From Candidatus Saccharimonadales bacterium (GTDB lineage: Bacteria > Patescibacteriota > Saccharimonadia > Saccharimonadales > JAXHNE01): 64,000 bases of DNA. The stretch covers positions 122,896-186,895 of the forward strand of contig JBFIJL010000001.1 in assembly GCA_041600755.1 (NCBI GenBank), read 5' to 3'. The notes beneath the pieces are model-generated. The model saw only the letters and a program-made list of their open reading frames with translations. It ran no database searches and was not told the DNA's origin. Shown piece after piece: positions 5,193-59,202 of this stretch. Position numbers and translations under genes: made by a program. Numbering within the stretch: position 1 is the first letter of the stretch; every line of letters begins with the position of its first letter.

Positions 5193-5195
5193 GAA

Positions 5196-5765: not shown

Positions 5766-5769
5766 ATAT

Positions 5770-7306: not shown

Positions 7307-7319
7307 GTAAGCTTCCCCT

Positions 7320-8795: not shown

Positions 8796-9144
8796 GAACT
8801 ATGTCAGAGACAATCTGATCTTGTAATGTCAGCTATGCTGTCGGAGCTGGAGGAGATGTCTGGTCGCTAGGCTCAGCAGCGACGACAGGGACAGTAGAAG
8901 CAGGTGCAGCATTATCAAATAATGAAACTGGAGCCGCAGTAGGTGATATGATTGGCGAATTTACTTGCGCTACGCTGAGTTTATTGAATCCAATCTGAAT
9001 GGGGCTTGACCTGTCTTCGGCCCGAAACTTCTACTTTGAAAGAAATATTTCGAATGAAGGTTTTCTTTCAAACTGCCACTGGCAGTTCTCCCCCACGACA
9101 TCCTTTTGGCGTGTCGCGGATTCAGGCACGAAACCTTATCAAAT

Positions 9145-9173
9145 AAAAAGACTCACCTCGGTGAGTCTTTTTA
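9145..9173 (-). terminator. Hairpin terminator after tRNA-Lys (A/T-flanked, potentially bidirectional)
   Basis: AAAAAGACTCACC-TCG-GGTGAGTCTTTTT. Confidence 0.6.
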
Positions 9174-9175
9174 TT

Positions 9176-9252
9176 TGGAGGGTCCGGTGGGACTTGAACC
9201 CACGACACCCTGCTTAAAAGGCAGGTGCTCTAACCAGCTGAGCTACGGACCC
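9176..9252 (-). tRNA. tRNA-Lys (anticodon UUU), CCA encoded
   Basis: The reverse complement folds as a cloverleaf: GGGTCCG/CGGACCC acceptor, CCTGC-CTTTTAA-GCAGG anticodon arm, GTGGG-TTCAAGT-CCCAC T-arm. Confidence 0.9.
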
Positions 9253-9804: not shown

Positions 9805-10287
9805 TTAGTGTTTATTTTTTGAATGTCCTTTGTTTTTATTTAAAAGCCATAGAGTCGCAAGCTGGAATCCAACAACCACCCCGATTACGAGTTCAATGGA
9901 TTCATAGGCTTGAGCACCAATCTCAGTTGAAGTAGCTCTGGCAAGCATCTCTGTAGGCAGTGTAGGCAATGCAAATGCCGCCAATACTACTCCTGCTATA
10001 AGTAGAGGGATCCATGCGTAAAAGAGCTTGGTCTTTTCGATGCTCCCTTTTAGGAATAAAGCCGTGAACAGTATGGGTAGTACGATTATCACCAGCTCAG
10101 CATAGTGCGCAAAGGTCTCGCTGTTAGTTAGTGACTTGATTACCAACTCTGCATCATCACCAAAATATCTCCCCAGAAGTTCGCCGGCCATTACACTAAA
10201 AAACAAATGTGATGGATTCACTCTAAACAAGATTCCAAGTAGCAACGGAAAGCCGGTCAGAGCGCCAAGAATTATATAACTAGACAT
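9805..10287 (-). CDS. Hypothetical polytopic membrane protein
   Basis: 160 aa with about five hydrophobic helices. No recognised motif. Confidence 0.5.
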   Translation of the reverse strand: MSSYIILGALTGFPLLLGILFRVNPSHLFFSVMAGELLGRYFGDDAELVIKSLTNSETFAHYAELVIIVLPILFTALFLKGSIEKTKLFYAWIPLLIAGVVLAAFALPTLPTEMLARATSTEIGAQAYESIELVIGVVVGFQLATLWLLNKNKGHSKNKH

Positions 10288-10309
10288 TACCGGTTTATCA
10301 TAGCAAACT

Positions 10310-10801
10310 TTATAGGTTCTGCTCTATGGTAAGTTTTAGTGGCCGTGTTAGTGAATCACCAACACCACCTTTTAGTTCCAAAACATAGCGCACCGGCTGG
10401 CTTGGGCAAAATGTATCAGGATAGGATGACGGATCTGCTGACGGCTCTAAATCTATTACCTCATAATTGGCGTCTAGCCAGAATATATCAAGTGGAAAAT
10501 CAACGTCCTTCATCCAGAAACAATAAGTATAGTCTTCTTCAAAGACAAAAAGCATACCTTCATTGGGCAGGATGTCATCACGTCCACCCAGTCCCTTCAT
10601 GCGCTTTTGGTTGGTGTCTGCTAGCTCAACCTGAAACTGTTTACCTCCGAAGGATACAAGTGCTTTTTGATATTCAGCAGGCGGCGCCACAGACACAGAC
10701 CTGTATGCCGAGATGCTCAAAATAACAAACAATAAAATGGCAGCTAGAAGTATCGAGAGTTTACGCGCCGACACGGTCACGCTTGCGCTTGCCTTTGGCA
10801 T
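10310..10801 (-). CDS. DUF192 domain protein with N-terminal signal anchor
   Basis: CFWMKDVDFPLDIFWLD matches the DUF192 core. Start is ambiguous (ATG 10837/10813/10801, GTG 10780); every option overlaps the rimK 3' end. Confidence 0.65.
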   Translation of the reverse strand: MPKASASVTVSARKLSILLAAILLFVILSISAYRSVSVAPPAEYQKALVSFGGKQFQVELADTNQKRMKGLGGRDDILPNEGMLFVFEEDYTYCFWMKDVDFPLDIFWLDANYEVIDLEPSADPSSYPDTFCPSQPVRYVLELKGGVGDSLTRPLKLTIEQNL

Positions 10802-11675
10802 TTTGCTCAACATAGTCAAGAATTTGTCCGGCAACATTGCGCCCAGTCACCTTCTCGATTGCAAATCCGGGGCTGGCGTTTACTTCAAGTATAAGCGGCC
10901 CACGGTCGCTGCGCATCATGTCGACACCGCAAATCGGCAGGCCAATTGCTTTTGCGGCCTTAGTAACTGTTTTGCGCTCTTCTGGTGTCAATTTTATCAC
11001 CTTACCTTCACCGCCTTGATGTAAGTTTGAACGAAAATCATCGTCAAGGCTCTGACGCTTCATACTTGCAACAACCTTGCCGCCAACCACGATTGCACGA
11101 ATATCAACGCCTGCTGACTCCTTTACGAACTCCTGAAGCAAGATGTTGGTTCCGTCGTCGTCCATCACATAGAATGCTTGAAGTACAGACTTGGCAGCCT
11201 TCTTGGTTTCGGCCAAAACAACACCATTGCCGTGTGTTCCACGGGCAAGCTTAATGATAATTGGCGTTCCGCCCAAACCTTCAATTAGTTCATCAATGTC
11301 AGTTGTAACACCGCGAGAGAAAACTGTTTTGGGTATACCCACACCTGCACGAGACAAAAGCTGCATGCTACGAAGCTTATCGCGCGAACGAACAAGAGCA
11401 ATAGAACTTGTTGTCGTGTAGACACCCTGCATCTCGAACTGCCTAACGATTGAACTTCCATAACGTGTATAACTACTGGCAATTCTAGGAATAATCACAT
11501 CGTAGTCTTTGAGAGGCTCACCCCGGTACGTTACGACTGGATTGTTTTTTTCGATAGTAGCGTAGCACTGCGAATAGTCAATAACGTCCACATCATGACC
11601 ACGCTCCAAAGCCTCTTCTTTGAGTCGCTTTGTTGAGTAGTTGCCAGGGCCTTTGGATAAAATCGCAATTCTCAT
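10761..11675 (-). CDS. rimK: RimK-type ATP-grasp ligase (ribosomal protein S6 glutamate ligase family)
   Basis: MRIAILS...TKRLKEEALERGH N-terminus. 304 aa with ATP-grasp motifs (IIKLARGTHGNGV, EVNASPG). Confidence 0.85.
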   Translation of the reverse strand: MRIAILSKGPGNYSTKRLKEEALERGHDVDVIDYSQCYATIEKNNPVVTYRGEPLKDYDVIIPRIASSYTRYGSSIVRQFEMQGVYTTTSSIALVRSRDKLRSMQLLSRAGVGIPKTVFSRGVTTDIDELIEGLGGTPIIIKLARGTHGNGVVLAETKKAAKSVLQAFYVMDDDGTNILLQEFVKESAGVDIRAIVVGGKVVASMKRQSLDDDFRSNLHQGGEGKVIKLTPEERKTVTKAAKAIGLPICGVDMMRSDRGPLILEVNASPGFAIEKVTGRNVAGQILDYVEQNAKGKRKRDRVGA

Positions 11676-11684
11676 ATCTGAACC

Positions 11685-12113
11685 TTACTTACTTGCCTTA
11701 AGCACGTCAACCAAAAATCCATGTTCTGCTAAAAATCTACGACCAATAAGCACATCAAGACTCATCTCTGAGCGGTCGGCGAGTGTCAACGTTATTGGTA
11801 GTGTTTCACCCGCAATAGTAATTCGTGTATTTACAAAGAATCGCTCTTGCTCAATACCATTGCTGCTTTTTACTGGACCAGTTGAATAGTCACGAGTCTG
11901 AATTTCGATATCTGGATGGTCAAACGGCGAGAATTTTAAAACTCTGCCTTTTTTGTCTTCATCTTCATGGATTTCAGTACAGTGCAGTGATCCGGTAAAT
12001 GCGCCAGTGTCTATTTTTGCAAGCAGTGGCGCCATTGGCGTGAAATCAGGAAAACTCACATGCTCATTGCGACCAAGTATTTTATTTTTTGCAACGGCGA
12101 TTGTCTTTGACAT
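11685..12113 (-). CDS. Retropepsin-like 'ATP-dependent zinc protease' family protein (RimB-like RimK partner)
   Basis: AKIDTGAFTGSLH aspartic-protease-like motif. 142 aa, immediately upstream of rimK as in the rimB-rimK portion of rimABK-type operons. Confidence 0.7.
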   Translation of the reverse strand: MSKTIAVAKNKILGRNEHVSFPDFTPMAPLLAKIDTGAFTGSLHCTEIHEDEDKKGRVLKFSPFDHPDIEIQTRDYSTGPVKSSNGIEQERFFVNTRITIAGETLPITLTLADRSEMSLDVLIGRRFLAEHGFLVDVLKASK

Positions 12114-12145
12114 AACCTTCTAATTATAGCATAGATTGAATTATT

Positions 12146-12271
12146 TTACAACCCTTGTGCTTTTTTGACGCGCAAGAAAACTAGCACGATGGCGGTCATT
12201 ACAATAACGATCATCATGACAATCATTGTGATGAATCCTTGCGCATTGTGTAGTGTTTTCGTTTTTTTCAT
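12146..12271 (-). CDS. Possible 41-aa single-TM micro-protein
   Basis: Manually translated ORF MKKTKTLHNAQGFITMIVMMIVIVMTAIVLVFLRVKKAQGL, lying between dnaJ and the rimB-like gene. No clear SD. Confidence 0.3.
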   Translation of the reverse strand: MKKTKTLHNAQGFITMIVMMIVIVMTAIVLVFLRVKKAQGL

Positions 12272-12311
12272 AGTTACTAAAAGTGTAGCAGAATTGGTGC
12301 GTAAACTTTAT

Positions 12312-13385
12312 TTAAAAGTCTTCTAGTAGCTTCTTTTGAGCTCGCGAAAGTTTTGTCGGTGTATCAACAATAATTGTGACGATATGCGCACCCCTGGAGT
12401 CTTTACGCAAGTGCGTTACACCATGACCACTCAGTTTAAAGTCAGTGCCGCTCTGTGTTCCAGCTGGTACCTTCATAGTCACCGGGCCATCGACAGTACT
12501 TACTTCGATCTCTGTTCCTAGCGCTGCGGCCACCATATCAACGTGTTCATCTGACAAGATTAGATCGCCTTCACGGGTGAAATGTTTATGCGGTTTTACG
12601 CGAACATTCACGTACAAGTCACCTTTATGACCATCTGCAACCGCTTCACCATGCTCACGCAACCTGATTGTCGCCCCATCATCAATGCCAGCAGGGATTT
12701 TCAAAGAAATCTTTTGCTTGGTTCGCTCGGTGCCCTTTCCCTTGCAGTTGGTGCAGGTTTTTTCTGGTATCTTACCTTTTCCTTTGCAGGTCGGACATGT
12801 CACTGCCTGCTGCATATTGCCAAAAACAGTTTGCATGACACGTACTACCTGCCCAGCGCCTTGACACTCATCACAGGTTTTGACGTCATGACCGGGTTCG
12901 GCAGTAGTTCCCTTACAATGAGAACAAATATCATCTAGCTGTAAATTTAGGTCAACCTCAGTGCCGAATACTGCTGATTCAAATGAAATTTCGACATCTG
13001 TTTCAACGTCTCGACCGCGACTTGACCTTCGACCACCTTGGCCGCCACCACCGCCTCCAAAAAAGCTACTAAAAATATCACCAAGACCAAGATCGCCAAA
13101 GTCGAAGTTCACATTCTGTCCTTGACCACCAAAACCGGCGTATGGGTTGCCACCACCGCCTCCAGATCCACCGACGCCAGCGTGTCCAAATTGGTCATAA
13201 CGTTGGCGCTTACTCGAATCTTTCAAGACTTCGTAGGCTTCGTTTATTTCTTTAAACTTTGCCTCGTCTCCACCTTCTTTATCAGGATGATACTGAATCG
13301 CTTTTTTCCGAAAAGCCTTCTTTAGTTCATCAGCACTTGCGCCCTTGGCGACACCTAATACTTCATAATAATCACGTTTACTCAT
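12312..13385 (-). CDS. dnaJ: Chaperone DnaJ
   Basis: J-domain DYYEVLGV...HPD, G-rich linker and four CxxCxGxG zinc-finger repeats. Confidence 0.95.
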   Translation of the reverse strand: MSKRDYYEVLGVAKGASADELKKAFRKKAIQYHPDKEGGDEAKFKEINEAYEVLKDSSKRQRYDQFGHAGVGGSGGGGGNPYAGFGGQGQNVNFDFGDLGLGDIFSSFFGGGGGGQGGRRSSRGRDVETDVEISFESAVFGTEVDLNLQLDDICSHCKGTTAEPGHDVKTCDECQGAGQVVRVMQTVFGNMQQAVTCPTCKGKGKIPEKTCTNCKGKGTERTKQKISLKIPAGIDDGATIRLREHGEAVADGHKGDLYVNVRVKPHKHFTREGDLILSDEHVDMVAAALGTEIEVSTVDGPVTMKVPAGTQSGTDFKLSGHGVTHLRKDSRGAHIVTIIVDTPTKLSRAQKKLLEDF

Positions 13386-13395
13386 TGGATCTATT

Positions 13396-13422
13396 TTAGC
13401 ACTTGAGGGTGATGAGTGCCAG
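13396..13422 (-). promoter_or_regulatory. CIRCE-like HrcA operator upstream of dnaJ
   Basis: TTAGCACTT-N9-GAGTGCCAG versus consensus TTAGCACTC-N9-GAGTGCTAA (15/18), 10 nt from the dnaJ start. Confidence 0.6.
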
Positions 13423-13427
13423 TTTTT

Positions 13428-14183
13428 TTATAGGAGCGAAAGCCAGTATTCCTGAAATTTGAAATAAATCATAAAGGCAATAATTAAATAGGCCGTAAGT
13501 ATAGCTACAGGCATGTTTTTTTCTAAATAATCTTTAACTAAAACTGGAGTTTTTATCGCACCTATGAGTGATGCATATAGCGTCACGTAGAGGAAAGTAG
13601 GAATAACCATCAACCAAACAGATATACAAAACAGGCATAATGCGCCAATGCTATAAAGTGATTGCCAGATCAGCCACATGCAAAATGCAGCACCGAATGC
13701 CGTTCCGAGCCATAATGCCTGCCACCACCATTTCTTAAAAGCGCCACCTGCCAGCAAACTCATACCGGCAATGATTAGCGCACCAAATCCAAACACGCCA
13801 AGAATAGGATTTGGGATCCCACCAAATGCACTAGCCTGGGCGCTGCCAATAATTGGCGAACAAGCCACAACAGGACTAATTGAGCACGGTGTTACATAAT
13901 CGGGATTTTGCAAAAGCTCGATTTTTTCACGGGTAAGGTTCACGGCAGCGGCCATGCCAATTGACCCAACGAATATAAGCAAAAATGGCAAAATAACTTC
14001 AAGTTTTTTTCGGAGGTTTTTCTGCCTGATTGCAATGGGTCGAATAAGTATAACTACGAGAGCAAGTGTGGCGAATAGCAATCCAAAGTACCAGTAAATT
14101 GAATGATAGGTAACAAAAATTGCAATTAAGCTAGTAAATAGCGGCACGGTGGCCGCAATAAGTTTTGAGTGTTTAAAAATCAT
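13428..14183 (-). CDS. Vitamin K epoxide reductase (VKOR) family membrane protein
   Basis: Loop Cys pair C-x7-C (TPCSISPVVAC), then SAFGGIPNPILG, and a CLFC (CxxC) motif in a TM helix. Confidence 0.75.
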   Translation of the reverse strand: MIFKHSKLIAATVPLFTSLIAIFVTYHSIYWYFGLLFATLALVVILIRPIAIRQKNLRKKLEVILPFLLIFVGSIGMAAAVNLTREKIELLQNPDYVTPCSISPVVACSPIIGSAQASAFGGIPNPILGVFGFGALIIAGMSLLAGGAFKKWWWQALWLGTAFGAAFCMWLIWQSLYSIGALCLFCISVWLMVIPTFLYVTLYASLIGAIKTPVLVKDYLEKNMPVAILTAYLIIAFMIYFKFQEYWLSLL

Positions 14184-14198
14184 GACCTTAAGTATAGG

Positions 14199-15731
14199 TT
14201 ATTTCTCGAATAAATCATCACCTAAGTGTTTCTTGAGACGAGCCCGAATGCTGCCTTCGTGTCGGCCCAACAACTTTGCCAGCTTAGCTACAGGCTTGCC
14301 GTCGCTCCATGCCAACAGCAAGGTGTCATCCTCTATTTTTTTCCAGGGCTTGTAAGCGTTAGGGTGGTCCTTTCTCATGACCTCGACTTTGGCCGACCAG
14401 TCACCAGCCGCAGCTTTTTTCTTGGTACGCTTATCGCGAGTCTTCTGCTTTTTCTCATATGATGACACCAGATGCTTGAAATCTAGCTGGTGAGCTTTTG
14501 AAAGTGAGCGCAGTCTTTCGTCAATTTCATGAGCCTGCTCATTAAGCTGCAGGGCCATCTTGTTTATGCCAGCCAGTGTTAACGTATCAAGACTTTTTAC
14601 TCGGGACAGTGCCACATACCCCATGCCTGGCACAAAAGCATTCTGCAAATCTATGTGCGCCGCATCGAGCGTCATGCCCTGACTCTTGTGTACTGTAATC
14701 GCCCACGCAAGCCTCAAGGGTAATTGCGAAAGTCCCGCAATCTTCTTCTCACCATCACGCATCTCCCAAGCATCGGCTTCAACGGTTATTTTACGACCCT
14801 CACGAGTCTCGACAATTGGCATGGCATCCTCGTCATCACCAAAACCAATAACGGTACCTAGTGTGCCATTGGCATATTTTTTGTCGCTAGAATTTTTAAC
14901 AAACATCACAAATGCACCTTTTTTAAGCTGCAGTGTTTCTGGTGCGAGGCAAGATTTTTTAAGTGACTCAATCGCTCCTTTTCGCCCAGTGCTAGTCATG
15001 TCATATTCATACAGCTCGCCATCCATGGCATCCAACTTAGACTGATTCACGACATCGACATTTATGTTCTTGGTGTACAGCTCAGTTACAGGCTCATCAA
15101 ATGGTGAGCGCGGAATCTTACGAGCGAGCAACAATTCGGCGTGTCGACGGCGCAAATCATTGTCACGCATAGCTGTCAGTATTTCTAATAGAGAATCATC
15201 CTCTTGGCGATGCTGTTCAGATAGATAGCAAATTGTTGGTTGAATTGCCTCCCATGATTGCGAGCCAACGACGAACCCCCCCTGCTTGCTGTCGTGACGA
15301 TTTACCGGCGGAAGTTGATAAAAATCACCAGACAATACAATTTGCAGCCCACCGAATGGCTCGTCCTTATCACGAACCAGTCTGCAAACCTGTTCGACAA
15401 GATCCAATCGAAAATCATGCAGCATCGACACCTCGTCAATAATTAAGACATCGGCACCAGCTATTTGATCCTTACGCGATTTACTCATTTCCCGGATAGA
15501 TTTTGGCTGCAGCTCATCAGCAATGCCAATCCCTGCCCACGAATGAATTGTGCTACCGCCTAAATGAGTAGCTGCTAAACCAGTTGATGCTGTAACCGCT
15601 ACAGACTTACCGTCGCTTCGTGCGTTTTTGATGAATTGATTTAGAACATAGGTTTTTCCAGAGCCTGCCGGGCCGGTCAAAAAAACCGATTGTCCATCAT
15701 CTAAAATAGCCAAAGCTTCAGTTTGAGTCAT
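14199..15731 (-). CDS. PIF1/RecD-like superfamily 1 DNA helicase with C-terminal HTH-like tail
   Basis: Walker A FLTGPAGSGKTY, DEVSML, and the C-terminal VHKSQG motif of RecD/Pif1 helicases. Confidence 0.8.
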   Translation of the reverse strand: MTQTEALAILDDGQSVFLTGPAGSGKTYVLNQFIKNARSDGKSVAVTASTGLAATHLGGSTIHSWAGIGIADELQPKSIREMSKSRKDQIAGADVLIIDEVSMLHDFRLDLVEQVCRLVRDKDEPFGGLQIVLSGDFYQLPPVNRHDSKQGGFVVGSQSWEAIQPTICYLSEQHRQEDDSLLEILTAMRDNDLRRRHAELLLARKIPRSPFDEPVTELYTKNINVDVVNQSKLDAMDGELYEYDMTSTGRKGAIESLKKSCLAPETLQLKKGAFVMFVKNSSDKKYANGTLGTVIGFGDDEDAMPIVETREGRKITVEADAWEMRDGEKKIAGLSQLPLRLAWAITVHKSQGMTLDAAHIDLQNAFVPGMGYVALSRVKSLDTLTLAGINKMALQLNEQAHEIDERLRSLSKAHQLDFKHLVSSYEKKQKTRDKRTKKKAAAGDWSAKVEVMRKDHPNAYKPWKKIEDDTLLLAWSDGKPVAKLAKLLGRHEGSIRARLKKHLGDDLFEK

Positions 15732-19244: not shown

Positions 19245-19941
19245 ACAGTGCCTCCTCGAGTGCAGTGCCTGCATACTTAACTAAACTCATGACTTCACGG
19301 TAGCTTTGCCTAGTTGGACCAAGCACACCAATGTAGCTTTCGTCTGAAAACGGAGACTGAAACTTACTTATGATCAAGCTGCAGCCGGCGCTACGACCAA
19401 TTGGGTTTTCATTTCCGATATAGACACTTAGAGGCTTGTTTGGGGCGGCTTCACGAAGCCATGGCTCTAGATTGTCTAGCAGGCTCGCAACTTGCTTAAC
19501 CTGACCACTTTGAATGAACTCAGGCTGGCCAAACAGGTTAGAAAGACCACTCATGTATAGCTGATTGCCAATAGTTGCGATACCGAGATTATGCGTAAGT
19601 TCCACAAGAGTATCTACAGCATTACGAATGGTGCGTTCAGGTAGTCCAGCTCCCTCTACTCGAGCCGTTAGGGCGCGTTCGCCGCGGACATCATGCGAAT
19701 CCTCATTAAGCTCATTTAATACATTTACGTAATGTCGGTAGCCTTTGTCGGTTGGAATGCGCCCGGCACTGGTATGTGGCTGCTTTATGAGCCCCTGACG
19801 TTCAAGCTCGGCCATCTCAGAGCGAATAGTTGCCGATGAAACATTAAAAACTTTGGCCATGAGGCTAGAGCCAACTGGGCTGGCAACTTCGGCATACTGC
19901 TCCACAATCGCTTTCAATATCTTGGCTTGACGTTCGGTCAT
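19237..19941 (-). CDS. hrcA: Heat-inducible transcription repressor HrcA (short, 234 aa)
   Basis: N-terminal winged helix ERQAKILKAIVEQY...VGS..L...F.VSSATIRSEMAELE..GLI.QPHTSAGRIPT. Confidence 0.9.
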   Translation of the reverse strand: MTERQAKILKAIVEQYAEVASPVGSSLMAKVFNVSSATIRSEMAELERQGLIKQPHTSAGRIPTDKGYRHYVNVLNELNEDSHDVRGERALTARVEGAGLPERTIRNAVDTLVELTHNLGIATIGNQLYMSGLSNLFGQPEFIQSGQVKQVASLLDNLEPWLREAAPNKPLSVYIGNENPIGRSAGCSLIISKFQSPFSDESYIGVLGPTRQSYREVMSLVKYAGTALEEALYE

Positions 19942-19962
19942 AATACTCGTGATTATACCGTT

Positions 19963-19989
19963 CTAGCACTCAAAGTGCAAGAGTGCTAG
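19963..19989 (-). promoter_or_regulatory. CIRCE operator overlapping the hrcA promoter
   Basis: Perfect inverted repeat CTAGCACTC-N9-GAGTGCTAG, overlapping the -35/spacer of minus-strand TTGCAC-17-TATAAT. The ATG lies 10 nt after the -10. Confidence 0.85.
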
Positions 19990-26097: not shown

Positions 26098-26982
26098 TTA
26101 TTTGCCAGGTGTTCTACTTGTAGTCAACACAACGGTTTTACCCTGACTTATTAGCTGCTTGTTGCCAGGTAGCGACATTCTTGATCCAACTGGTCCTGTT
26201 TTGCAAAATACGTAAGCATCCATTACAAGACGTTTTGAAATCTCAATTCCACCTCTCTGCAGCCAATGTGCAACAAACTCAAGACCAATAGACGCGTGCG
26301 TCGAGAGTAGTTCATGCCTGACTATTTCCTTGCTGTCTTTCATATGCTCAGCAACCATCTGGTCAATTTCATCATTTAATCCAAGCATAGAAACATAAAG
26401 ATCAAGCAATTTTTGCCTTAAAGTATCATCAAGATTGTTTACTATTCTATGGCGAACAAAATTACGTAGATATTTAGTGTCTAGATTCGTATTGTCTTCG
26501 TGCCAATCTAATTTATGAAGTCGAGCATAATCAGTTATTTCTGTTTTTGACTCCTCAAGCATTGGTCTCATGATGTCATTGGTGCTTTTCAGCGAACTTA
26601 AGCCCTTGCGATTTGTGCCTCGCAGCAGGTTCAGAATCATAGTTTCGATTACGTCGTCTTGATGATGTGCAGTGATGATTGCTGCTGCACTGTACTTCTC
26701 ACGTATTTTTTGTAGAAATTCATAACGCGCCTTGCGAGCCGTCGACTCACTTGCCTCATTTCCAAGCTTTAGCTGTGTTGACTCAAAACGGAGTCCGTAT
26801 TGTCTGGCTAAAGATTCTACAAATTTTGCATCGTCAGCAGATTCGGTGCGCATACCATGATCAACGTGCGCAACAATAAGCTCCAGCTCAGGAATCTGTA
26901 ACAGTTTGTGCAACAAAACTACAGAATCCACGCCTCCAGAAACCGCCACAACATAACAACCAGGTCTCATCTTCATATTCAT
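26098..26982 (-). CDS. tilS: tRNA(Ile)-lysidine synthase TilS
   Basis: PP-loop VAVSGGVDS. 294 aa, in the classic position next to ftsH. Confidence 0.85.
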   Translation of the reverse strand: MNMKMRPGCYVVAVSGGVDSVVLLHKLLQIPELELIVAHVDHGMRTESADDAKFVESLARQYGLRFESTQLKLGNEASESTARKARYEFLQKIREKYSAAAIITAHHQDDVIETMILNLLRGTNRKGLSSLKSTNDIMRPMLEESKTEITDYARLHKLDWHEDNTNLDTKYLRNFVRHRIVNNLDDTLRQKLLDLYVSMLGLNDEIDQMVAEHMKDSKEIVRHELLSTHASIGLEFVAHWLQRGGIEISKRLVMDAYVFCKTGPVGSRMSLPGNKQLISQGKTVVLTTSRTPGK

Positions 26983-28032: not shown

Positions 28033-28109
28033 GGCAGGATAGCTCAGTTGGTTAGAGCGCAGGACTCATAAGCCTGAGGTCCCGAGTTCAAATCTCGGTC
28101 CTGCTACCA
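28033..28109 (+). tRNA. tRNA with anticodon CAU (elongator Met or lysidine-modified Ile2), CCA encoded
   Basis: GGCAGGA/TCCTGCT acceptor, CAGGA-CTCATAA-GCCTG anticodon arm, CCGAG-TTCAAAT-CTCGG T-arm. Confidence 0.9.
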
Positions 28110-46586: not shown

Positions 46587-46662
46587 GGGGGCGTAGCTCA
46601 GGGGTTAGAGCAGTCGGCTCATAACTGATTGGTCGTAGGTTCAAATCCTACCGCCCCCACCA
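46587..46662 (+). tRNA. tRNA with anticodon CAU (elongator Met or Ile2), CCA encoded
   Basis: GGGGGCG/CGCCCCC acceptor, GTCGG-CTCATAA-CTGAT anticodon arm, GTAGG-TTCAAAT-CCTAC T-arm. Confidence 0.9.
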
Positions 46663-48188: not shown

Positions 48189-49001
48189 CTAGTTTACAGT
48201 ATAGGTTTGTCTATTTTGCGTTTTTTGTATTTCTCTTTGATGAGCCCGGGCCGCCTGGCCTAGGAGCCCTGCTCTGGCGTCGAGATATCTCGCTTGCAAA
48301 TCGAGCAACGACTGCCACTTCCCTACACGAGTATTTTGTCGCTGGCTAGTAAGATAGTTTATTGCAGATGCCTCAACTCGCCTCCTTGTTTCATCATCCC
48401 AATTTCGATATATGCGCAGTGTATCGATCACGTTAAGAAGTTCGGACCACGATTGGCCAATCAGCCGTTTCATTTCATGCGCAGGCTTATGAGCAAAGCC
48501 AGGTGACTTTGCTTCCTTCAACAATACTAGAACGTCCAGATTCCTGGCTACTAAACCATCGCGGTGAAGACTGATTGCATCGACGGTTGTTTCCAGGGCA
48601 TGAATGCGTGAACGGTCACTGCGCTCAACCGCTTGATCTGTAATGTCTGTTGCTGCGGCAATAGTTTTGCGTGCGGCAGACCGTGCAAGCAATTCTGGAG
48701 GTCGCCTGACCCAAGTAAACTCCTTTGGAGGAAGAAGCACTCCTTTTGCATAGCCTACTGGATTCGGATCTAAACCCCTGCTATTACGATCATTCGTAAA
48801 CAAAATATCTTCAAGTTTGACTGCATTAAACCAAGACTTCTCGACATCAGTAAGCACAATATCGGCCAAATCTTGCTGCGGGTCGTAGAGTCGCTCCTTG
48901 ACGTAGCCACCAAAAGCCACGAGTCGATTTGTATCTTCTTTTATTTCAGCGACTGGAGGACCATGTAGCTCACCTGATTGTTCTGGTGTATTCCCTGTCA
49001 T
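48189..49001 (-). CDS. Hypothetical 270-aa protein
   Basis: Long ORF with GAGGG SD. No recognised motif. Confidence 0.55.
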   Translation of the reverse strand: MTGNTPEQSGELHGPPVAEIKEDTNRLVAFGGYVKERLYDPQQDLADIVLTDVEKSWFNAVKLEDILFTNDRNSRGLDPNPVGYAKGVLLPPKEFTWVRRPPELLARSAARKTIAAATDITDQAVERSDRSRIHALETTVDAISLHRDGLVARNLDVLVLLKEAKSPGFAHKPAHEMKRLIGQSWSELLNVIDTLRIYRNWDDETRRRVEASAINYLTSQRQNTRVGKWQSLLDLQARYLDARAGLLGQAARAHQREIQKTQNRQTYTVN

Positions 49002-49018
49002 GACGCCCTCACTTTATA

Positions 49019-49285
49019 CTAATTTTGTTTTTCGCGATTTGCTGAATAAATAGCTACAGCACCCTTGATTGCTGAGTTGTCGTGTGTAGAGCCTTCGATA
49101 CCAGTATCATGCTTTATTTGAGCAATTCGCTCACTTACGCTTTCTGGGGCTGGGTCGGAATAGAGCTTCTTCTGAAAGTCTTCAATATCCTCTTGGGTTG
49201 CTCCAGGAGCGGTCGATTTCCAATGTGCTTCAGAAAGCTCAATTGCTCGCTGCAGGTTATCTGGTGTTGTTCGTTGTTCTGCCAT
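49019..49285 (-). CDS. Hypothetical 88-aa protein
   Basis: ORF 17 nt upstream of the 270-aa gene on the same strand. Confidence 0.5.
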   Translation of the reverse strand: MAEQRTTPDNLQRAIELSEAHWKSTAPGATQEDIEDFQKKLYSDPAPESVSERIAQIKHDTGIEGSTHDNSAIKGAVAIYSANREKQN

Positions 49286-49309: not shown

Positions 49310-50158
49310 TTATTTTACAACCAGTAGCACCCAGAAGAAGAGCATGGCTCCCATGATCATATTTATGCGAGGGAAATATGTGTAGTAGCGAAAGAATGCC
49401 TCTTTTGTGGCAGTTTTGGACGACACATACATTAACCATAGGTAGAGAAGTCCGCCAGCTAGCGCGAACCAACCAAGATATTGATACGAAAGAATAGCAG
49501 CGGCTGCGTAGTTAAATGCGCAAAAGATAAGTGTATTTTGCTTGCCAAGTACAGTTGCAATGGTTTTAATTTTAGCTTTCTGATCAGCTCGAATATCTGG
49601 TATCGCCGAGAAGGCATGCATGGCTGCGCACCAAAACATGCCAGCAAGGAAAAGCTGCAGTGCAGGATATGAGCCACCGGTAAGCAGTCCGTAGCTCACC
49701 AACGCAGGAAATACGTAAAGCACATTAAAATAAGCATCCAAAAATGGCTTGGTCTTGGCTCGGATTGGCGGCACTGAGTAGCCTAGACCAAAGAAATAGA
49801 AGCCTGTCATCGCCCACTTCACCGCCTGTGGAACTGAAGGAGGTAGAACAAGAAGTAATCCAAGCATACCCATCAAAGTCAAAATTCGTAGCACTCCCTG
49901 TCGATGATCGGGGCTCAATAGTTGCTCGTATCCCTGTTTTTTTGAATTGTGCTTGTCGGTTTCGTAGTCAAAAACGTCGTTAAACCCATATATGAGTAAA
50001 TTGGCAGGAACAGTGAAAAACAGACCGAGTGCAAGCAGCCTGAAAGAAAATACCTGATTAGGAGCGGCAACGATACCGATCAAAAAGGGACCAAGCAAAT
50101 AAACCCAGAATCGTGGTCGGCTTAATCGCAAAAGTGGGCTTCGTTGACGACTACTCAT
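49310..50158 (-). CDS. UbiA-family prenyltransferase (lycopene elongase LyeJ/CrtEb-like by context)
   Basis: NDVFDYETD (NDxxDxxxD) and a second Asp-rich region. SRPRFW N-terminus and about eight TM helices. ATG 50158; the track's TTG is at 50176. Confidence 0.75.
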   Translation of the reverse strand: MSSRQRSPLLRLSRPRFWVYLLGPFLIGIVAAPNQVFSFRLLALGLFFTVPANLLIYGFNDVFDYETDKHNSKKQGYEQLLSPDHRQGVLRILTLMGMLGLLLVLPPSVPQAVKWAMTGFYFFGLGYSVPPIRAKTKPFLDAYFNVLYVFPALVSYGLLTGGSYPALQLFLAGMFWCAAMHAFSAIPDIRADQKAKIKTIATVLGKQNTLIFCAFNYAAAAILSYQYLGWFALAGGLLYLWLMYVSSKTATKEAFFRYYTYFPRINMIMGAMLFFWVLLVVK

Positions 50159-50175
50159 GTGCGATAATTGTAGCA

Positions 50176-50859
50176 ATGAATCTAGAAAATGTACCGAATG
50201 TTATTGCTTTGATTGCCCCGATAATTGGAATTATCTTATTTGCAGTACCAAGTTACTTCGGTGTACTCAAGCAACGAAAGACATTAGGACTGTTTATATT
50301 AATCATCCTTGGGGTGTACGCCTTAGCGGTTGAAACGGCAGCAATCAAAACTGGTTTTCCTTATGGATCATTCAGCTATACCGATGTTCTTGGCCCAAAA
50401 TTACTTGATACCACTCCATGGGCGGTGGCTTTTGCTTATCCACCAATTTTGCTTGGTGCATTCTGGCTGGCGAGCAAGTTTACTCGCTCATTTCCACGCA
50501 TAATTCTAGCGGCAATATTTGCAACTATAGTGGATGTTGTTCTTGACCCAGCTATCGTGAAACTTGAATTTTGGGCCTGGGAAACACCAGGAGCATTTTA
50601 TGGAGTTCCTTGGATTAACTTTGCTGGGTGGCTGCTCAGTGGCCTCGTGGGCGCCTTCATCTTGCATATACTCTGGGGCAAGGATCATCGCGTCAAGGCT
50701 CCTGTAGCTTACAGTGGGCTGTCTGTGCTGTTGTTTTGGACTGGCGTTAACGCTGGAGTGGCACAGAAGATTCCATTTGGCATAGGTGCCGCCTATGCAC
50801 TTCTCATTTTGATAATTATCATAATAGAAAAGCAGCAATTTAAAGGAGAAGATGAGTAA
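50176..50859 (+). CDS. Carotenoid biosynthesis membrane protein (CruF/PF04240-like)
   Basis: Polytopic, with FPYGSFSYTDVLGPKL...PWAVAFAY resembling the Caroten_synth family. An 8-nt overlap couples it to the desaturase gene. Confidence 0.6.
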   Translation: MNLENVPNVIALIAPIIGIILFAVPSYFGVLKQRKTLGLFILIILGVYALAVETAAIKTGFPYGSFSYTDVLGPKLLDTTPWAVAFAYPPILLGAFWLASKFTRSFPRIILAAIFATIVDVVLDPAIVKLEFWAWETPGAFYGVPWINFAGWLLSGLVGAFILHILWGKDHRVKAPVAYSGLSVLLFWTGVNAGVAQKIPFGIGAAYALLILIIIIIEKQQFKGEDE

Positions 50860-52429
50860 GTCCGCTCTGATCATAGGGTCGGGATTTGGTGGACTAGGAT
50901 CAGCATGCTTACTCTCTAAAGCGGGCTACGATGTCACTGTGCTTGAAAAAAACGAAATGGTTGGGGGACGAGCAAGCGTCTTTAATGTTAAAAAAAACCG
51001 CTACGGAACATGGGCTGTAAGCACCAATAAAAAAACAGTTGGGCGTAAACCAGAGTCGTTCCGCTTTGACATGGGGCCAAGTTGGTACTTGATGCCTGAT
51101 GTATTTGAACACTTCTTCGAATTGATTGGAGAAGACGTAAATAAGCTTCTAGACCTTGAAAAGCTTGGACCAAGTTATCGAATATTCTACAAAGACACAT
51201 CCAAAAGTGTCGATATCTATTCTGATCTAAAGCGCGACCTCAAAACAATCGAATCCATCGAAGATGGTGCCGGCGAAGCACTAAATCGCTATCTAGATCA
51301 GGCTGGCTACCAGTATGAAGTTGCCAAAGATAGATTTATGTACAAAAACTACGACTCTATCAAAGATTTCTTCACCAAAGAAATGGCGGTTGAGGGTCGT
51401 AAGCTTAGTGTGCTTGCAAACATGGACAAGCATGTGCGCAAGTATTTCAAGACTGATGCCATGCAAAAAATCATGCAATATCCACTCGTATTCCTAGGCT
51501 CAAGCCCATACAATACCCCGGCGATTTACAACATCATGAGCCATATCGACTTCAATATGGGGGTGTTTTATCCACAAGGTGGCATTTACGAAATTACTGA
51601 GTCTTTGGCTGGAATTGCAAAGAAACACGGCACAAAGTTTAAGATAAACACACCAGTAAAAAAAATAATTGTCGAGAACGGCAAGGCGGTTGGTGTAAAG
51701 CTAGAAAACGGCAAGGACCTACGGGCAGATATCGTCATTAGTAACGCAGATATTTATCACACCGAGCACACACTACTAGATGAAAAGCACCGCACAAAGT
51801 CCAAAAAATACTGGGACAAGCGCACACTGGCACCAAGTGCCCTGATCATGTACCTGGGCGTAAAGGGCAAGTTACCATCTTTGACGCATCACAATCTTTT
51901 GTTCAGCAAAGACTGGAAACAAAATTTTGCCGAAATTTTTGATAAGCCACAATGGCCAAGCGATCCAAGCCTGTACGTCTGTAATCCAAGCAAAACCGAC
52001 TCGAGCACTGCTCCAAAAGGACATGAAAACTTATTTGTGCTTGTGCCGATTGCGCCAGGCCTGACTTACACCGAAAAGCAGCTCGAAAAATATGCTGACA
52101 CCATCCTGGCAACTATGGAAACCGAGATGAAACTGACTGGGCTGCGCGATCAAATTGTCTATAAGCGCCTGTTTAGCGTCAAGGATTTCTTTGCCCGCTA
52201 CAACAGCCAAGGCGGCACTGCACTTGGCCTAGCCCACACTCTCAAGCAAACGGCCGTATTTCGACCAAATAACATCAGTAAAAAAGTGAAAAACCTTTAT
52301 TTTGTAGGAGCTGGCACAAATCCGGGCATTGGGATGCCAATCACTCTTATTAGTGCCGAACTTATGTACAAGCGCCTGATTGGAGACAAAACGTCTGGCC
52401 CTCTAACGGAAAAACAGTTGCAGAAATAA
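50852..52429 (+). CDS. Phytoene desaturase family enzyme (CrtI/CrtD-like)
   Basis: N-terminal IIGSGFGGLG...VLEKN...GGRA FAD fold. 525 aa with the C-terminal FVGAGTNPGIGMP motif of CrtI-type desaturases. Confidence 0.88.
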   Translation: MSKSALIIGSGFGGLGSACLLSKAGYDVTVLEKNEMVGGRASVFNVKKNRYGTWAVSTNKKTVGRKPESFRFDMGPSWYLMPDVFEHFFELIGEDVNKLLDLEKLGPSYRIFYKDTSKSVDIYSDLKRDLKTIESIEDGAGEALNRYLDQAGYQYEVAKDRFMYKNYDSIKDFFTKEMAVEGRKLSVLANMDKHVRKYFKTDAMQKIMQYPLVFLGSSPYNTPAIYNIMSHIDFNMGVFYPQGGIYEITESLAGIAKKHGTKFKINTPVKKIIVENGKAVGVKLENGKDLRADIVISNADIYHTEHTLLDEKHRTKSKKYWDKRTLAPSALIMYLGVKGKLPSLTHHNLLFSKDWKQNFAEIFDKPQWPSDPSLYVCNPSKTDSSTAPKGHENLFVLVPIAPGLTYTEKQLEKYADTILATMETEMKLTGLRDQIVYKRLFSVKDFFARYNSQGGTALGLAHTLKQTAVFRPNNISKKVKNLYFVGAGTNPGIGMPITLISAELMYKRLIGDKTSGPLTEKQLQK

Positions 52430-52441
52430 GTTTTCAAAAAC

Positions 52442-52473
52442 AAAAAAATCGGCTGATTGCTCAGCCGATTTTT
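52442..52473. terminator. Bidirectional terminator between convergent genes
   Basis: AAAATCGGCTGA-TTGC-TCAGCCGATTTT. Confidence 0.7.
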
Positions 52474-53648: not shown

Positions 53649-54266
53649 CTACAGTTCGTGTTTGTAATACCAGCCAAGTAAAATTCTTGCAATCAAACAC
53701 ATACCAACAAGTACGGCCGCCACAATACTAAAGCCCGCAACATCAGGAGACCAGGCTGGTGAGGCAAAATCGAACTGATAGAGCTCCTTTGGAATAGTTG
53801 TATTATCATTTAACTGTTTAGTGTTGCTAGCTATGTATTCATCGACACAAGCAGCGCGTTCTTTAATGCGACCAGCACCGAATCGACTCTCACATATTCC
53901 AGGTGCCTCAGCTAGCACTTGCTTGTTATGTGATTCAATATCGGCATTTTGTGAACCAGTCAGTCTTTCGTATGTATACTTTAACTGGATTGGAGGCTTG
54001 ATAGATACGCCACCGGAGTTCAGGTTGGTATTCATGTGCCCATACACATGCGTTCGCAGTTCATCAAGAGCTTCTTCCACCCCTTCACCGGCTTTATCGG
54101 CAGCATAGACAGCAGAGCGAAGCTCCACCATTCGCGAATAGTTGTCACGAAGCGCAATCGCGGCAACCGAAATGGTCACAAACAAGATACCCAGTAGCAA
54201 TCTGATTGAAATACGCTGCAGCATCTTGTGATGACGATACATTGCTCTTTTCGCGTTCATGCTCAC
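53649..54266 (-). CDS. Hypothetical protein with N- and C-terminal TM helices
   Basis: 205 aa. A 4-nt overlap couples it to the upstream MFS gene. Confidence 0.55.
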   Translation of the reverse strand: MSMNAKRAMYRHHKMLQRISIRLLLGILFVTISVAAIALRDNYSRMVELRSAVYAADKAGEGVEEALDELRTHVYGHMNTNLNSGGVSIKPPIQLKYTYERLTGSQNADIESHNKQVLAEAPGICESRFGAGRIKERAACVDEYIASNTKQLNDNTTIPKELYQFDFASPAWSPDVAGFSIVAAVLVGMCLIARILLGWYYKHEL

Positions 54267-55471
54267 CTTCCTCCCAAAGCCTTAAAGCCCTGAGTATTGA
54301 TAAGTATCGAGCAAAGTCCAGCAATCGCGAACCCCGTAGTTAGCAGCTGAAAATCTGTCATAAACTGTGACAGAACCAACAACTGAATCCAAGTAATAGA
54401 TTTTACTAAACTACCAAAGGCCTCAAGACTTGAAAGGTAAACAATCCTAAGTCCTTCATGCTCATCAGAGGCATCGTAAACACCTTTGATATACGGAATA
54501 CGGTAGCCCACTGTAAGTGCCTCATTCATTATATTTATTGCCAACACGCCAGCAATGCCGCTAACGAATGGCCGCAGACCATACACGCATGCATTCGCAA
54601 ATGATGAAACACGCAACAATAATCCACCCTTTTTGCCGTCAACCAATTTACCCACAAAATAAGCAGAAGCAATTGAAATCATAAATCCGATTGACGCCAG
54701 TCCACCAATATTTCCATAAACATTTTCACTAAAAATAAACAAAACTAAAAATGCTGGCCACAAAACAAGACAAAGATTGTTTTCTATGCTGTAAAAAGAA
54801 TAAGATAAGAAGTCTCGCTTGATTGACGATATATCAAGACGACTATAGAAAAGCTTCTGATGCGTTTTCACTGGTTCGGCAGTCTTAAAAAGCGGAACCA
54901 GGCCTATTAGCAAGACCACAACGGCTACCAAAAATAATACTTGAGGTCCATAAAATGTTGCCAGCAACCCGCCGGTTACTGGTCCCAGCATGCCCCCAAC
55001 TCTCTCTAGGGCATTCAAGTATCCCAGCTCTTTGCCACCGTGATTTATGTGCTTTATTTTTGAAAAATCTACATGTAGCGCAATAAAAGTAAAGCTATTG
55101 GCCGCCCCCCATATGGCGGCAGGAATAAGTAGTGAGGCTGCTGAGGTTCCAAGAAATGAAAATGTGCCTGCTGCAATTATTTGAATGATGTAGCCAATGA
55201 GCAATGTGTGCTTAGGGCCAAAGCGAGCTACGGTATGCGCTGCAAGGAAATCCATAAGTACGCGAACAGCAAAAAAACAAATAAAAAATTGAATCACTCC
55301 CGTGAGCCCAAAACCGGACTTCAATATATACACTGGAACAAAAATGCCTATCAGCCCCAGTGCGAAACTACGGAATGACATAGCAATATAGACTTCACTC
55401 AACTCGTCAAATGTGGCCTGACGCCAAAAGTGTCTTCGAAGCATCGCCTTGTGAATGATATTTTTGAGCAT
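54263..55471 (-). CDS. Major facilitator superfamily transporter
   Basis: 402 aa with about 12 TM helices in a 6+6 arrangement. Confidence 0.75.
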   Translation of the reverse strand: MLKNIIHKAMLRRHFWRQATFDELSEVYIAMSFRSFALGLIGIFVPVYILKSGFGLTGVIQFFICFFAVRVLMDFLAAHTVARFGPKHTLLIGYIIQIIAAGTFSFLGTSAASLLIPAAIWGAANSFTFIALHVDFSKIKHINHGGKELGYLNALERVGGMLGPVTGGLLATFYGPQVLFLVAVVVLLIGLVPLFKTAEPVKTHQKLFYSRLDISSIKRDFLSYSFYSIENNLCLVLWPAFLVLFIFSENVYGNIGGLASIGFMISIASAYFVGKLVDGKKGGLLLRVSSFANACVYGLRPFVSGIAGVLAINIMNEALTVGYRIPYIKGVYDASDEHEGLRIVYLSSLEAFGSLVKSITWIQLLVLSQFMTDFQLLTTGFAIAGLCSILINTQGFKALGGR

Positions 55472-57755: not shown

Positions 57756-58613
57756 ATGTTTGAAAGCACAACCATTTTTATACAAGAACATTGGCTCGGC
57801 GCATTTATTACATTGACTGCTATTTTCTTAACTCGTAAGTTTGCGATGATAATCGTAGCCCGACTCGTTCGTCGAGCAATTCGCCCAGATGCCTACAAGA
57901 CAGTTGCCGAAGAGCGGCAACGTGAGGATACGCTCATTTCTGTTATTGGCGCCACGATACGAGTTGGACTGTGGATTATTGGTGGACTGCTACTGCTCGG
58001 TGTATTGGGCGTGAACATTGCACCACTTCTTGCGGGTGCTGGGGTTTTGGGTGTTGCGCTCGGTTTTGGAGCTCAGTCACTTGTAAAAGATTTTCTGTCG
58101 GGTCTATTTATACTTGTAGAGAATCAATATAGAGTTGGTGACGTCATAAACATTAACGGCGTCATTTCTGGACAAGTAAAGCACGTTAGCTTGCGCGAAA
58201 CTGCACTGCGCGACCTCGATGGCGTGGTCCATCATGTGCCTAATGGATTTATTGACTACGCCTCAAACATGACAATGGAGTACGCAAATGTAAATCTCGA
58301 CATTGGGGTTGGATACAATACCGATCTGGATGAACTAGAGCTGATTATAAATCGTGTTGGCAGCGAGTTGGCGGCTGATGAAAACTGGAAAGAGAAAATA
58401 CTAGAAGCACCCCAACTACTCCGCGTCGATGCATTTGGCGAATCGGCAATTGTGGTTAAGATAACAGGCGCGACCGCACCTATGAAACAATGGGCGGTAA
58501 CCGGCGAGCTTCGCAAAAGACTCAAAAAAGCATTCGATAAAGCTGGGATTGAAATTCCTTTTCCTCAGCGCGTCGTACACCAGGCACAGTCTCTAAAGTC
58601 TAAGAAGAAGTAG
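57756..58613 (+). CDS. Small-conductance mechanosensitive channel (MscS family)
   Basis: Three TM helices followed by a beta-domain (RVGDVININGVISGQVKHVSLRETALRDLDGVVHHVPNG). TATACT lies 7 nt before ATG 57756. Confidence 0.8.
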   Translation: MFESTTIFIQEHWLGAFITLTAIFLTRKFAMIIVARLVRRAIRPDAYKTVAEERQREDTLISVIGATIRVGLWIIGGLLLLGVLGVNIAPLLAGAGVLGVALGFGAQSLVKDFLSGLFILVENQYRVGDVININGVISGQVKHVSLRETALRDLDGVVHHVPNGFIDYASNMTMEYANVNLDIGVGYNTDLDELELIINRVGSELAADENWKEKILEAPQLLRVDAFGESAIVVKITGATAPMKQWAVTGELRKRLKKAFDKAGIEIPFPQRVVHQAQSLKSKKK

Positions 58614-59202
58614 GTTGCGAATAATCTGTAATTTCTTGAGTATTCTGTAACTGTTTAATTTGATCTTTTGCCCACCAAGACCAGACTGGCAAGCTAGTCG
58701 CGGAGATGTTTCTCGGTTTGGCGAATGATGAATAATCTACTGGGTCTTCTTCAAGTTTAGCTATGTAATCACTCCACTTTAGCCAGTTTATTTCAGACAC
58801 TTCTTCAGAATTGGGATTAGGCCGGCTTGTTGCTCGAGCGACAAAAACTGGGCAAAACTCATTCTCTATAATTTCATTATATGGCGGCGTGCGGTATCGG
58901 TAATTTGGCAGTACCAGTTTCAGATCTTTTGCAGTCATGCCAAGCTCATACTTTAGCCTTCGAATTATTGCATCTTCCAAGCTTTCATTGGGCAGTGGGT
59001 GTCCGCATACGGTATTCGTCCAAAAATTTGGCCAAACTTTTTTGCCTGCAGCGCGCCTTGTTACTAGAAACTCCCCACGATCATTGAATATATAGCAGGA
59101 AAACGCTGAATGCAGCGGCGTATTAGCATGATGACTGGCTAGCTTTGGACCAGTTTTCCCAGTTGGCAGACCTGACTCATCGACAAAAACTATTGGCTCC
59201 AT
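58600..59202 (-). CDS. idi: Isopentenyl-diphosphate delta-isomerase, type 1 (Nudix fold)
   Basis: HSAFSCYIFN, WTNTVCGHP and ENEFCPVF motifs of type 1 IDI. TATACT lies 6 nt before ATG 59202. Confidence 0.85.
   Translation of the reverse strand: MEPIVFVDESGLPTGKTGPKLASHHANTPLHSAFSCYIFNDRGEFLVTRRAAGKKVWPNFWTNTVCGHPLPNESLEDAIIRRLKYELGMTAKDLKLVLPNYRYRTPPYNEIIENEFCPVFVARATSRPNPNSEEVSEINWLKWSDYIAKLEEDPVDYSSFAKPRNISATSLPVWSWWAKDQIKQLQNTQEITDYSQPTSS

Follow-up and report, generated by a model that had tools for sequence, protein, structure and literature searches.

Three clustered genes in a Candidatus Saccharimonadales bacterium raise the question of whether a bacterium with a reduced genome tailors a carotenoid for its own membrane and, if so, where the C40 substrate comes from. 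The genes lie within a 64,000-nucleotide stretch of NCBI assembly GCA_041600755.1 (contig JBFIJL010000001.1, positions 122,896–186,895) – hereafter the window – and encode a UbiA-family prenyltransferase, a CruF-like protein, and a CrtI-family desaturase. A preliminary description had likened the trio to the bacterioruberin-type carotenoid pathway and proposed that its substrate might be acquired from a host. Judging from sequence comparisons, the trio is probably a native, vertically inherited carotenoid-tailoring module of Saccharimonadales, homologous to the bacterioruberin genes of haloarchaea and Actinobacteria.

Organization of the gene trio

All three open reading frames (ORFs) were found where the preliminary description had placed them. 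The UbiA gene (49310–50158, minus strand; 282 amino acids) is divergent from the gene for the polytopic CruF-like protein, a putative carotenoid hydratase (50176–50859, plus strand; 227 amino acids), which is followed by the desaturase gene (50852–52429, plus strand; 525 amino acids). We assigned the UbiA start to the ATG at 50158, rather than to the upstream TTG at 50176, because an identical protein, known from Logan sample SRR29257383 and a 283-kb NCBI contig, has 282 amino acids. Read from the sequence, the two divergent start codons are thus separated by a junction of only 17 nucleotides (50159–50175), so any promoters must overlap the flanking coding regions; a consensus promoter scan of the junction found none.

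The claimed 8-nucleotide overlap between the CruF and CrtI genes was also borne out, with the CrtI ATG at 50852 lying upstream of the CruF TAA at 50857–50859. An AAAGGAG stands 5' of this ATG, and CrtI is translationally coupled to CruF. The pair is closed by a palindromic intrinsic terminator with a 13-bp stem between an A-run and a T-run (52444–52473). Neither the exact CrtI sequence nor the protein at the left edge of the window has a database record.

The UbiA protein resembles lycopene elongases

A scan of one genome per GTDB species returned at least 575 relatives of the prenyltransferase, and we read the genomic context of the best 80 loci. The window protein matches the UbiA family profile PF01040 with 94.6 bits (cutoff 34.2). 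It contains the NDVFDYETD motif quoted in the preliminary description and a second Asp motif, DIRAD; residues N60, D61, D64, D68, D188, and D192 are invariant across 29 homologues. Among subfamily models, the protein passed NF009516 (240.6 bits, cutoff 205) and fell below the cutoffs of the sister models NF010119 (134.6 bits) and the CrtEb-like NF009608 (124.3 bits, cutoff 217).

The description of NF009516 reads just 'prenyltransferase', and we drew the link to the lycopene elongase LyeJ via gene context, identity to a Halarchaeum protein, and the names of JGI homologues. As a haloarchaeal comparison we used the crtB-crtI-PT-cruF cluster on megaplasmid pCBA1220-01 of Halarchaeum sp. CBA1220, whose prenyltransferase (PT) is 38.8% identical to the window protein over its full length. 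Several homologues are named lycopene elongase/hydratase by JGI. The UbiA gene adjoins cruF and a crtI/crtD-type desaturase gene in the window, and the same association recurs in most of the 80 loci. Gene context also tells apart what the two NCBIfam elongase models detect: UbiAs associated with CruF match NF009516 (the window, L014, L053, L074), and cyclase-associated ones match NF009608 (L085, L087). These comparisons predict that the window protein is a LyeJ-type lycopene C5-elongase/1,2-hydratase. A CrtEb-type elongase of cyclic C50 pathways was also considered and rejected, since NF009608 failed and the window contains no cyclase-domain ORF.

The hydratase and desaturase assignments

The CruF-like protein aligns to positions 7–207 of the 209-position profile PF04240 (149 bits, cutoff 25). 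Its best NCBIfam model is the bisanhydrobacterioruberin hydratase TIGR03460, on which it scores 143 bits, under the cutoff of 154.7; it reaches 107 bits on NF041333 (cutoff 300) and 59.6 bits on the gamma-carotene hydroxylase CruF model. Identity to the annotated Halarchaeum CruF is 32.8%.

The desaturase passed the CrtI-family model TIGR02734 (497 bits, cutoff 238) and matched PF01593. Its FAD-binding GSGFGG motif (residues 9–14) and a GAGTNPGIG motif (residue 486) are present, and it is 44.6% identical, over the full length, to the CrtI of the Halarchaeum cluster. On NF058655 (CrtID, 'bifunctional phytoene desaturase/3,4-desaturase') it scores 618 bits, under the cutoff of 640, and all bacterial orthologues tested score 599–620 bits. 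The model's Haloarcula japonica counterparts are C0507 and D1086. The former was initially taken for the CrtD of bacterioruberin synthesis, and genetic work later revealed CrtI activity as well (PMC11946383). On the profile and identity values the window enzyme is probably of the C0507 (CrtI/CrtD) type. With a desaturase of this type, a separate second desaturase would not necessarily be needed, and phytoene could be the entry substrate instead of lycopene. The family assignments of the preliminary description stand, and its account of the desaturase is to be corrected in light of the C0507 work (PMC11946383).

Assignment to the spirilloxanthin-type CrtD was rejected on scores of 261, 221, and 69 bits for NF042421, NF045637, and TIGR02733, against cutoffs of 500, 580, and 550. 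Most CrtIs from the syntenic Saccharibacterial loci described below carry a variable, basic, hydrophilic insertion of 22–57 amino acids between GGRA and FRFDxGPSW (50984–51049 in the window, residues ~45–66).

An isopentenyl-diphosphate isomerase gene near the trio

The gene inventory of the preliminary description was right as to the trio and overlooked a type-1 isopentenyl-diphosphate isomerase gene (idi) about 6 kb away (58600–59202, minus strand). Its product passes NF002995 (209.8 bits, cutoff 127) and TIGR02150 (130.5 bits, cutoff 105.8); the ORF is open up to 59280, and the recorded gene call is 200 amino acids long (L001). Idi makes dimethylallyl diphosphate (DMAPP), the C5 donor of lycopene elongases (pathway summary in PMC9122864). 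We link Idi functionally to the module because an Idi homologue lies next to or near the trio at L007, L008, and L169, and because Acidobacteriota combine CruF and an Idi domain in a single 434-amino-acid protein. The presence of idi nearby shows that the cell handles isopentenyl diphosphate (IPP) and DMAPP itself.

The CruF-Idi fusion (~434 amino acids, PF04240 plus NUDIX, 216 bits on NF002995) was seen at ~40 Acidobacteriota loci from Pyrinomonadaceae and Chloracidobacterium-labelled metagenome-assembled genomes (MAGs). Examples are L021 (2329–3633, minus strand), L017 (8652–9962), and L011 (2224–3522), and the cluster reads CruF-Idi<>UbiA, CrtI, CrtB.

Predicted pathway

The identity and organization of the genes, their intact motifs, and their conservation across genomes are observed directly; the enzymatic steps and the product we infer by homology, as follows. 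The CrtI/CrtD-type flavoenzyme would desaturate phytoene to lycopene. The LyeJ-type UbiA would then add a C5 unit from DMAPP, supplied from IPP by Idi, to C-2 of each lycopene end and hydrate the 1,2 bond. The same desaturase would later introduce 3,4 double bonds, and CruF would hydrate the added isoprenoid units. The outcome would be an acyclic, hydroxylated C50 (or C45) carotenoid of the bacterioruberin type residing in the membrane, where it would probably serve in photoprotection, antioxidant defence, or membrane stiffening.

The module is syntenic among Saccharibacteria

The preliminary description had guessed that the window came from Saccharibacteria. Consistent with this, the closest loci (68–69% UbiA identity and the same synteny) come from MAGs labelled Candidatus Saccharimonadales or Saccharibacteria, recovered from sand and from soil of the Salar de Ascotan, a desert salt flat. 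Altogether ~17 Saccharibacteria loci share the order MurC-MFS-...-CrtI-CruF<>UbiA-small ORF-270-aa ORF-Dus (MFS, major facilitator superfamily transporter). We call this layout type A; its members include the window, L002–L009, and JGI contigs of 804 and 942 kb. Neighbour-joining trees unite the type-A CrtIs in a single clade (bootstrap 100%), and a grouping of type A with Actinomycetota receives 0–2%. Based on the shared synteny, the CrtI clade, and the near absence of support for an actinomycetal grouping, we regard the module as native to this lineage and old within it.

Distribution and other layouts

UbiA, CruF, and a C0507-like CrtI occur together in most of the best 80 loci, and do so in five or more phyla. 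The loci belong to Saccharibacteria and other Patescibacteria, to Microlunatus and Friedmanniella among the Actinomycetota, to Pyrinomonadaceae and Chloracidobacterium-labelled MAGs among the Acidobacteriota, to Armatimonadota, and to a Bizionia. The LyeJ-CruF-CrtI/D module thus appears far commoner than the usual picture of haloarchaea and a few Actinobacteria suggests. The wider set of at least 575 UbiA relatives is dominated by Acidobacteriota (Pyrinomonadales) and also includes Armatimonadota (Abditibacteriaceae), Propionibacteriales, and the Bizionia.

Within Patescibacteria we observed a second layout, type B, in which UbiA stands beside CrtI-CrtB-GGPPS (GGPPS, geranylgeranyl diphosphate synthase) with no CruF nearby. 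It was found at nine loci; L081 is a tenth with this layout, in which the CrtB match is weak and falls outside the cluster of the other CrtBs. The type-B CrtB scores 219 bits on PF00494 and the GGPPS 148 bits on PF00348. No CruF lies within 10 kb of the LyeJ-type UbiA at L010, L014, L023, L024, L052, L056, L062, L077, or L081 (~10000–14500 in each). The predicted end product of type B is an anhydro form (bisanhydrobacterioruberin-like), unless cruF is encoded elsewhere.

In a third layout, type C, a polyprenyl synthase gene is followed by SQS_PSY, CrtI, two small lycopene-cyclase-domain ORFs, and a UbiA that passes NF009608 (343–390 bits). This arrangement matches that of the decaprenoxanthin-type (cyclic-C50) operon known from Actinobacteria. 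The type-C loci (L085, 9153–13776; L086, 8918–13799; L087, 6861–13772) lie on contigs of 322–990 kb, sizes like those of Saccharibacteria genomes, and at L087 a heliorhodopsin gene and an MFS transporter gene are immediately 5' of the cluster.

C50 carotenoid genes thus occur in the phylum in at least three arrangements, and type A is the sole lineage among these whose module never has crtB and GGPPS as neighbours. Altogether, at least 13 other Saccharibacteria/Patescibacteria loci carry GGPPS-crtB-crtI beside a homologous elongase. A further layout, that of the Saccharibacterium L074, unites GGPPS, CrtB, and a classical CrtI with the CrtI-CruF<>UbiA core.

These other layouts also bear on the desaturase. 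No other CrtI-family gene accompanies the orthologous CrtI beside crtB in Acidobacteriota or type-B Saccharibacteria, an indirect indication that fits a bifunctional enzyme and is in line with the C0507 experiments (PMC11946383). The insertion seen in most type-A CrtIs is missing from L007, L008, type B, Acidobacteriota, and haloarchaea.

Weighing the proposed module and its substrate

Several observations weigh against a native module that makes a bacterioruberin-type pigment. The CruF-like protein and the desaturase both score just under the cutoffs of their best-fitting models (TIGR03460 and NF058655). At L074, which may represent a sister lineage, the CruF-side desaturase accompanies a separate classical CrtI, and the two CrtI clades are split with 100% bootstrap support; the window desaturase might accordingly act as CrtD alone. 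Monophyly of type A in the UbiA neighbour-joining tree, which is poorly resolved, receives a bootstrap of 15–20%. Freshwater Saccharimonadia have been reported to be without a C5 precursor pathway (PMC9166423), which makes the source of IPP doubtful. Biochemical evidence for bacterial members of the clade is confined to Actinobacteria. Finally, neither crtB nor GGPPS turned up between about −49 and +22 kb of the trio, or within 10 kb of it in the ~17 type-A relatives.

This last point is the one on which the preliminary description had built its proposal of a borrowed lipid, and its statement that crtB, a GGPP synthase, and a second desaturase are absent from the window proved correct. Six-frame phmmer searches (E ≤ 0.01), probed with four divergent CrtB and three GGPPS sequences, returned no match in the 64-kb window or the 10 kb beyond its right end, and those 10 kb contain no carotenoid genes. 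The ~71 kb so visible correspond to ~8% of a genome of roughly 0.9 Mb. A cultured, free-living actinomycete, Microlunatus aurantiacus, and seven other Actinomycetota loci share the CrtI-CruF<>UbiA arrangement with no crtB within 10 kb. Because of this shared detached layout, because other Saccharibacteria do carry crtE and crtB, and because only ~8% of the genome was seen, the local absence of crtB is weak evidence. The proposal is weakened by these observations rather than refuted, and we lean towards crtB and a GGPP synthase being encoded elsewhere in the genome.

Borrowing is nevertheless the alternative that survives best, and we regard it as possible though doubtful. It would have the type-A lineage lose crtE, crtB, and a classical crtI, keep idi and CrtI/D-LyeJ-CruF under purifying selection, and remodel phytoene or lycopene from the membrane of a carotenoid-producing host, for example an actinobacterium; of the precursors, only DMAPP would be self-made. 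Consistent with this idea, the absence of crtB and GGPPS around the trio extends to the syntenic relatives on the 804-kb and 942-kb contigs, and L074, with its full set of GGPPS, crtB, and classical crtI beside the same core, makes type A look trimmed. When 5.8 billion proteins were searched for CrtB, once with a type-B profile and once with the L074 sequence, no type-A contig was among the best 120 of more than 7,500 matches, though absence from so small a share of the matches means little. A metagenome scan with a Saccharibacterial CrtB alignment adds nothing to it, as its 80 loci do not include the two near-complete type-A JGI contigs, which are probably outside the collection. A precedent exists in rhodopsin-bearing Saccharibacteria without retinal synthesis, for which retinal uptake from Actinobacteria has been proposed (PMC9296517), and Saccharimonadia are reported to lack fatty-acid as well as C5 isoprenoid synthesis (PMC9166423).

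Against borrowing stand, besides the small share of the genome seen, the same detached layout in free-living Actinomycetota (also PMC9122864), the many Saccharibacteria with complete clusters (also PMC11484240), and two features of the window itself – a desaturase of a type that can use phytoene, and idi – that both suggest an otherwise self-sufficient pathway. If borrowing were true, this would be the first epibiont to complete a pigment pathway on host lipid, a parallel to the proposed borrowing of retinal. Likewise, absence of crtB from the whole genome would be direct genomic evidence that bacteria of the Candidate Phyla Radiation take up and remodel isoprenoids of host membranes.

A second alternative accepts the module and questions its product, which might instead be a mono-elongated C45 carotenoid, a glycosylated one, or, where relatives have cyclases, a cyclized one, or derive from another polyene substrate. 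The sub-cutoff scores of CruF and CrtID, the 22–57-amino-acid insertion in most type-A CrtIs, and the type-B loci without cruF would be compatible with it, as would L082, which has a PF05834 lycopene cyclase and a PF18916 protein. However, the predicted activities of the trio are precisely the three that are enough to turn lycopene into bacterioruberin in Ha. japonica, and no cyclase, glycosyltransferase, or ketolase was detected in the window. We consider a different product unlikely. At L082 the cyclase gene stands between CruF and CrtI (4328–9236) and the PF18916 gene 9 kb off (19298–19978). A pair of ABC-2 type transporter genes lies directly 5' of CrtI at both L082 and L171 (5509–7432).

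The native origin of the module could be questioned if the genes had been acquired recently from an actinobacterial host, or had entered the assembly from one as contamination, and the CrtI-CruF<>UbiA order is indeed common to Actinomycetota loci. Yet the GC content of the locus equals the window average, the trio sits in a backbone conserved over the ~17 Saccharibacteria contigs, and identity to the actinobacterial proteins is just ~45%. With bootstrap support of 0–2% for a type-A and Actinomycetota grouping, we rejected recent transfer, and either event now seems highly improbable. The reading that these are not carotenoid genes at all – a UbiA acting on a quinone, heme, or lipid headgroup and a flavoprotein that is an amine or other oxidase – has in its favour just the generic Pfam names (UbiA, Amino_oxidase) and a VKOR homologue elsewhere in the window, and is effectively refuted by scores of 20–43 bits on the quinone (UbiA, MenA/MqnP), heme, chlorophyll (ChlG), and geranylgeranylglyceryl phosphate (GGGP) transferase models of NCBIfam (cutoffs 180–414), by 497–618 bits on the CrtI-family models, by consistent linkage with CruF and crtB across phyla, and by the Halarchaeum identities, so that by NCBIfam score neither does the UbiA protein fall among quinone, heme, or lipid prenyltransferases nor the desaturase among amine oxidases, and we give this reading almost no credence.

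Neighbouring genes and other features of the window

Two ORFs lie 3' of the UbiA gene on the same strand: one of 88 amino acids (49019–49285, minus strand) after a gap of 24 nucleotides, then one of 270 amino acids (48189–49001, minus strand) after a gap of 17 nucleotides. Both recur at this position in type-A loci and are poorly conserved, and comparison with Pfam and the PDB gave no match for either. We considered the 270-amino-acid ORF as a cryptic phytoene synthase and rejected it; in addition to the lack of a Pfam or PDB match, it has 4 invariant columns, none of them acidic. The MFS gene of the window (54263–55471) was likewise rejected as a carotenoid-linked transporter: it has no detectable kinship to the MFS beside the type-C cluster at L087 and is part of the conserved backbone. 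The window was also searched for a rhodopsin gene, and none was detected.

The window also contains three tRNA genes with a CAT anticodon (28033–28109, 29272–29346, and 46587–46662) and an ORF that resembles tilS in a by-eye reading (26098–26982, minus strand). One of the three tRNAs is probably a lysidine-modified tRNA-Ile2 rather than a tRNA-Met. The VKOR homologue (13428–14183, minus strand; 115 bits on PF07884) belongs to a family of quinone-dependent disulfide-bond enzymes; to our knowledge, this lineage is not expected to make quinones.

Significance

Saccharibacteria are ultra-small epibionts thought to be without most lipid biosynthesis, and an intact, conserved module of this kind suggests that they invest in photoprotection or rigidity of their own membrane. 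As such, the trio is no novelty in this phylum (PMC9948471, PMC11484240), and the case is less unusual than the preliminary description assumed, since lyeJ, crtD, and cruF had been published for Patescibacteria in 2023 (PMC9948471). New elements are a C0507-type assignment for the desaturase, the idi gene that accompanies the module, the existence of several C50 layouts in one phylum, and a lineage in which crtB is never adjacent. The last of these makes the borrowing idea directly testable on existing assembled genomes.

Comparison with known systems

The cyclic-C50 operon of Corynebacterium and Micrococcus has the order crtE-crtB-crtI-crtYe-crtYf-crtEb. A UbiA-family C5 elongase predicted to act on lycopene is common to the window, this operon, and its counterpart at L085–L087, through which the system is represented among Saccharibacteria too. 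Unlike this system, the window has CruF in place of two small cyclase-domain proteins, its UbiA scores 124 bits on NF009608 (cutoff 217) against 343–390 bits for type C, and the CrtI clades are split (bootstrap 100%). In 2024, crtB, crtE, crtYf, and 'ubiA' were reported from a Saccharimonas MAG (PMC11484240).

In the Actinobacteria Arthrobacter agilis and A. bussei, a lye-crtD-cruF locus stands apart from idi-idsA-crtB-crtI (PMC9122864). The window is alike in that the tail module is detached from crtE/crtB and idi belongs to the pathway, and the Microlunatus and Friedmanniella loci (L053, L042, L063) even share the CrtI-CruF<>UbiA layout. It is unlike them in the ~45% identity of its proteins and in the 0–2% support for a specific relationship in the trees. 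Compared with the haloarchaeal enzymes, those of the bacterioruberin producer Arthrobacter are 36–38% (Lye) and 42–44% (CruF) identical (PMC9122864), and the 38.8% identity of the window UbiA to its haloarchaeal counterpart matches this Lye range. The window desaturase is C0507-like; the Arthrobacter CrtD is more divergent, with a reported 27–29% identity to its Ha. japonica counterpart.

In haloarchaea, the bacterioruberin genes of Ha. japonica are crtI/crtD (C0507), lyeJ, and cruF (Yang et al. 2015, as cited in PMC11946383). Here the same three families are clustered, and the desaturase is probably of the C0507 type and not a spirilloxanthin CrtD. The window differs in belonging to a bacterium with a ~1-Mb genome, in its divergent UbiA<>CruF-CrtI arrangement with no adjacent crtB as opposed to the co-linear crtB-crtI-PT-cruF, and in CruF and CrtID scores just under equivalog cutoffs tuned to haloarchaea.

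The nearest published parallel within the phylum comes from Lake Baikal, where Patescibacteria including a Saccharibacterium carry lyeJ, crtD, and cruF, read as bacterioruberin synthesis (Haro-Moreno et al. 2023, PMC9948471). The genes are the same three. In the Baikal genomes, however, they are often dispersed, their trees were described as polyphyletic, and the source of lycopene is not discussed, whereas the window represents a tight cluster that is syntenic over ~17 genomes.

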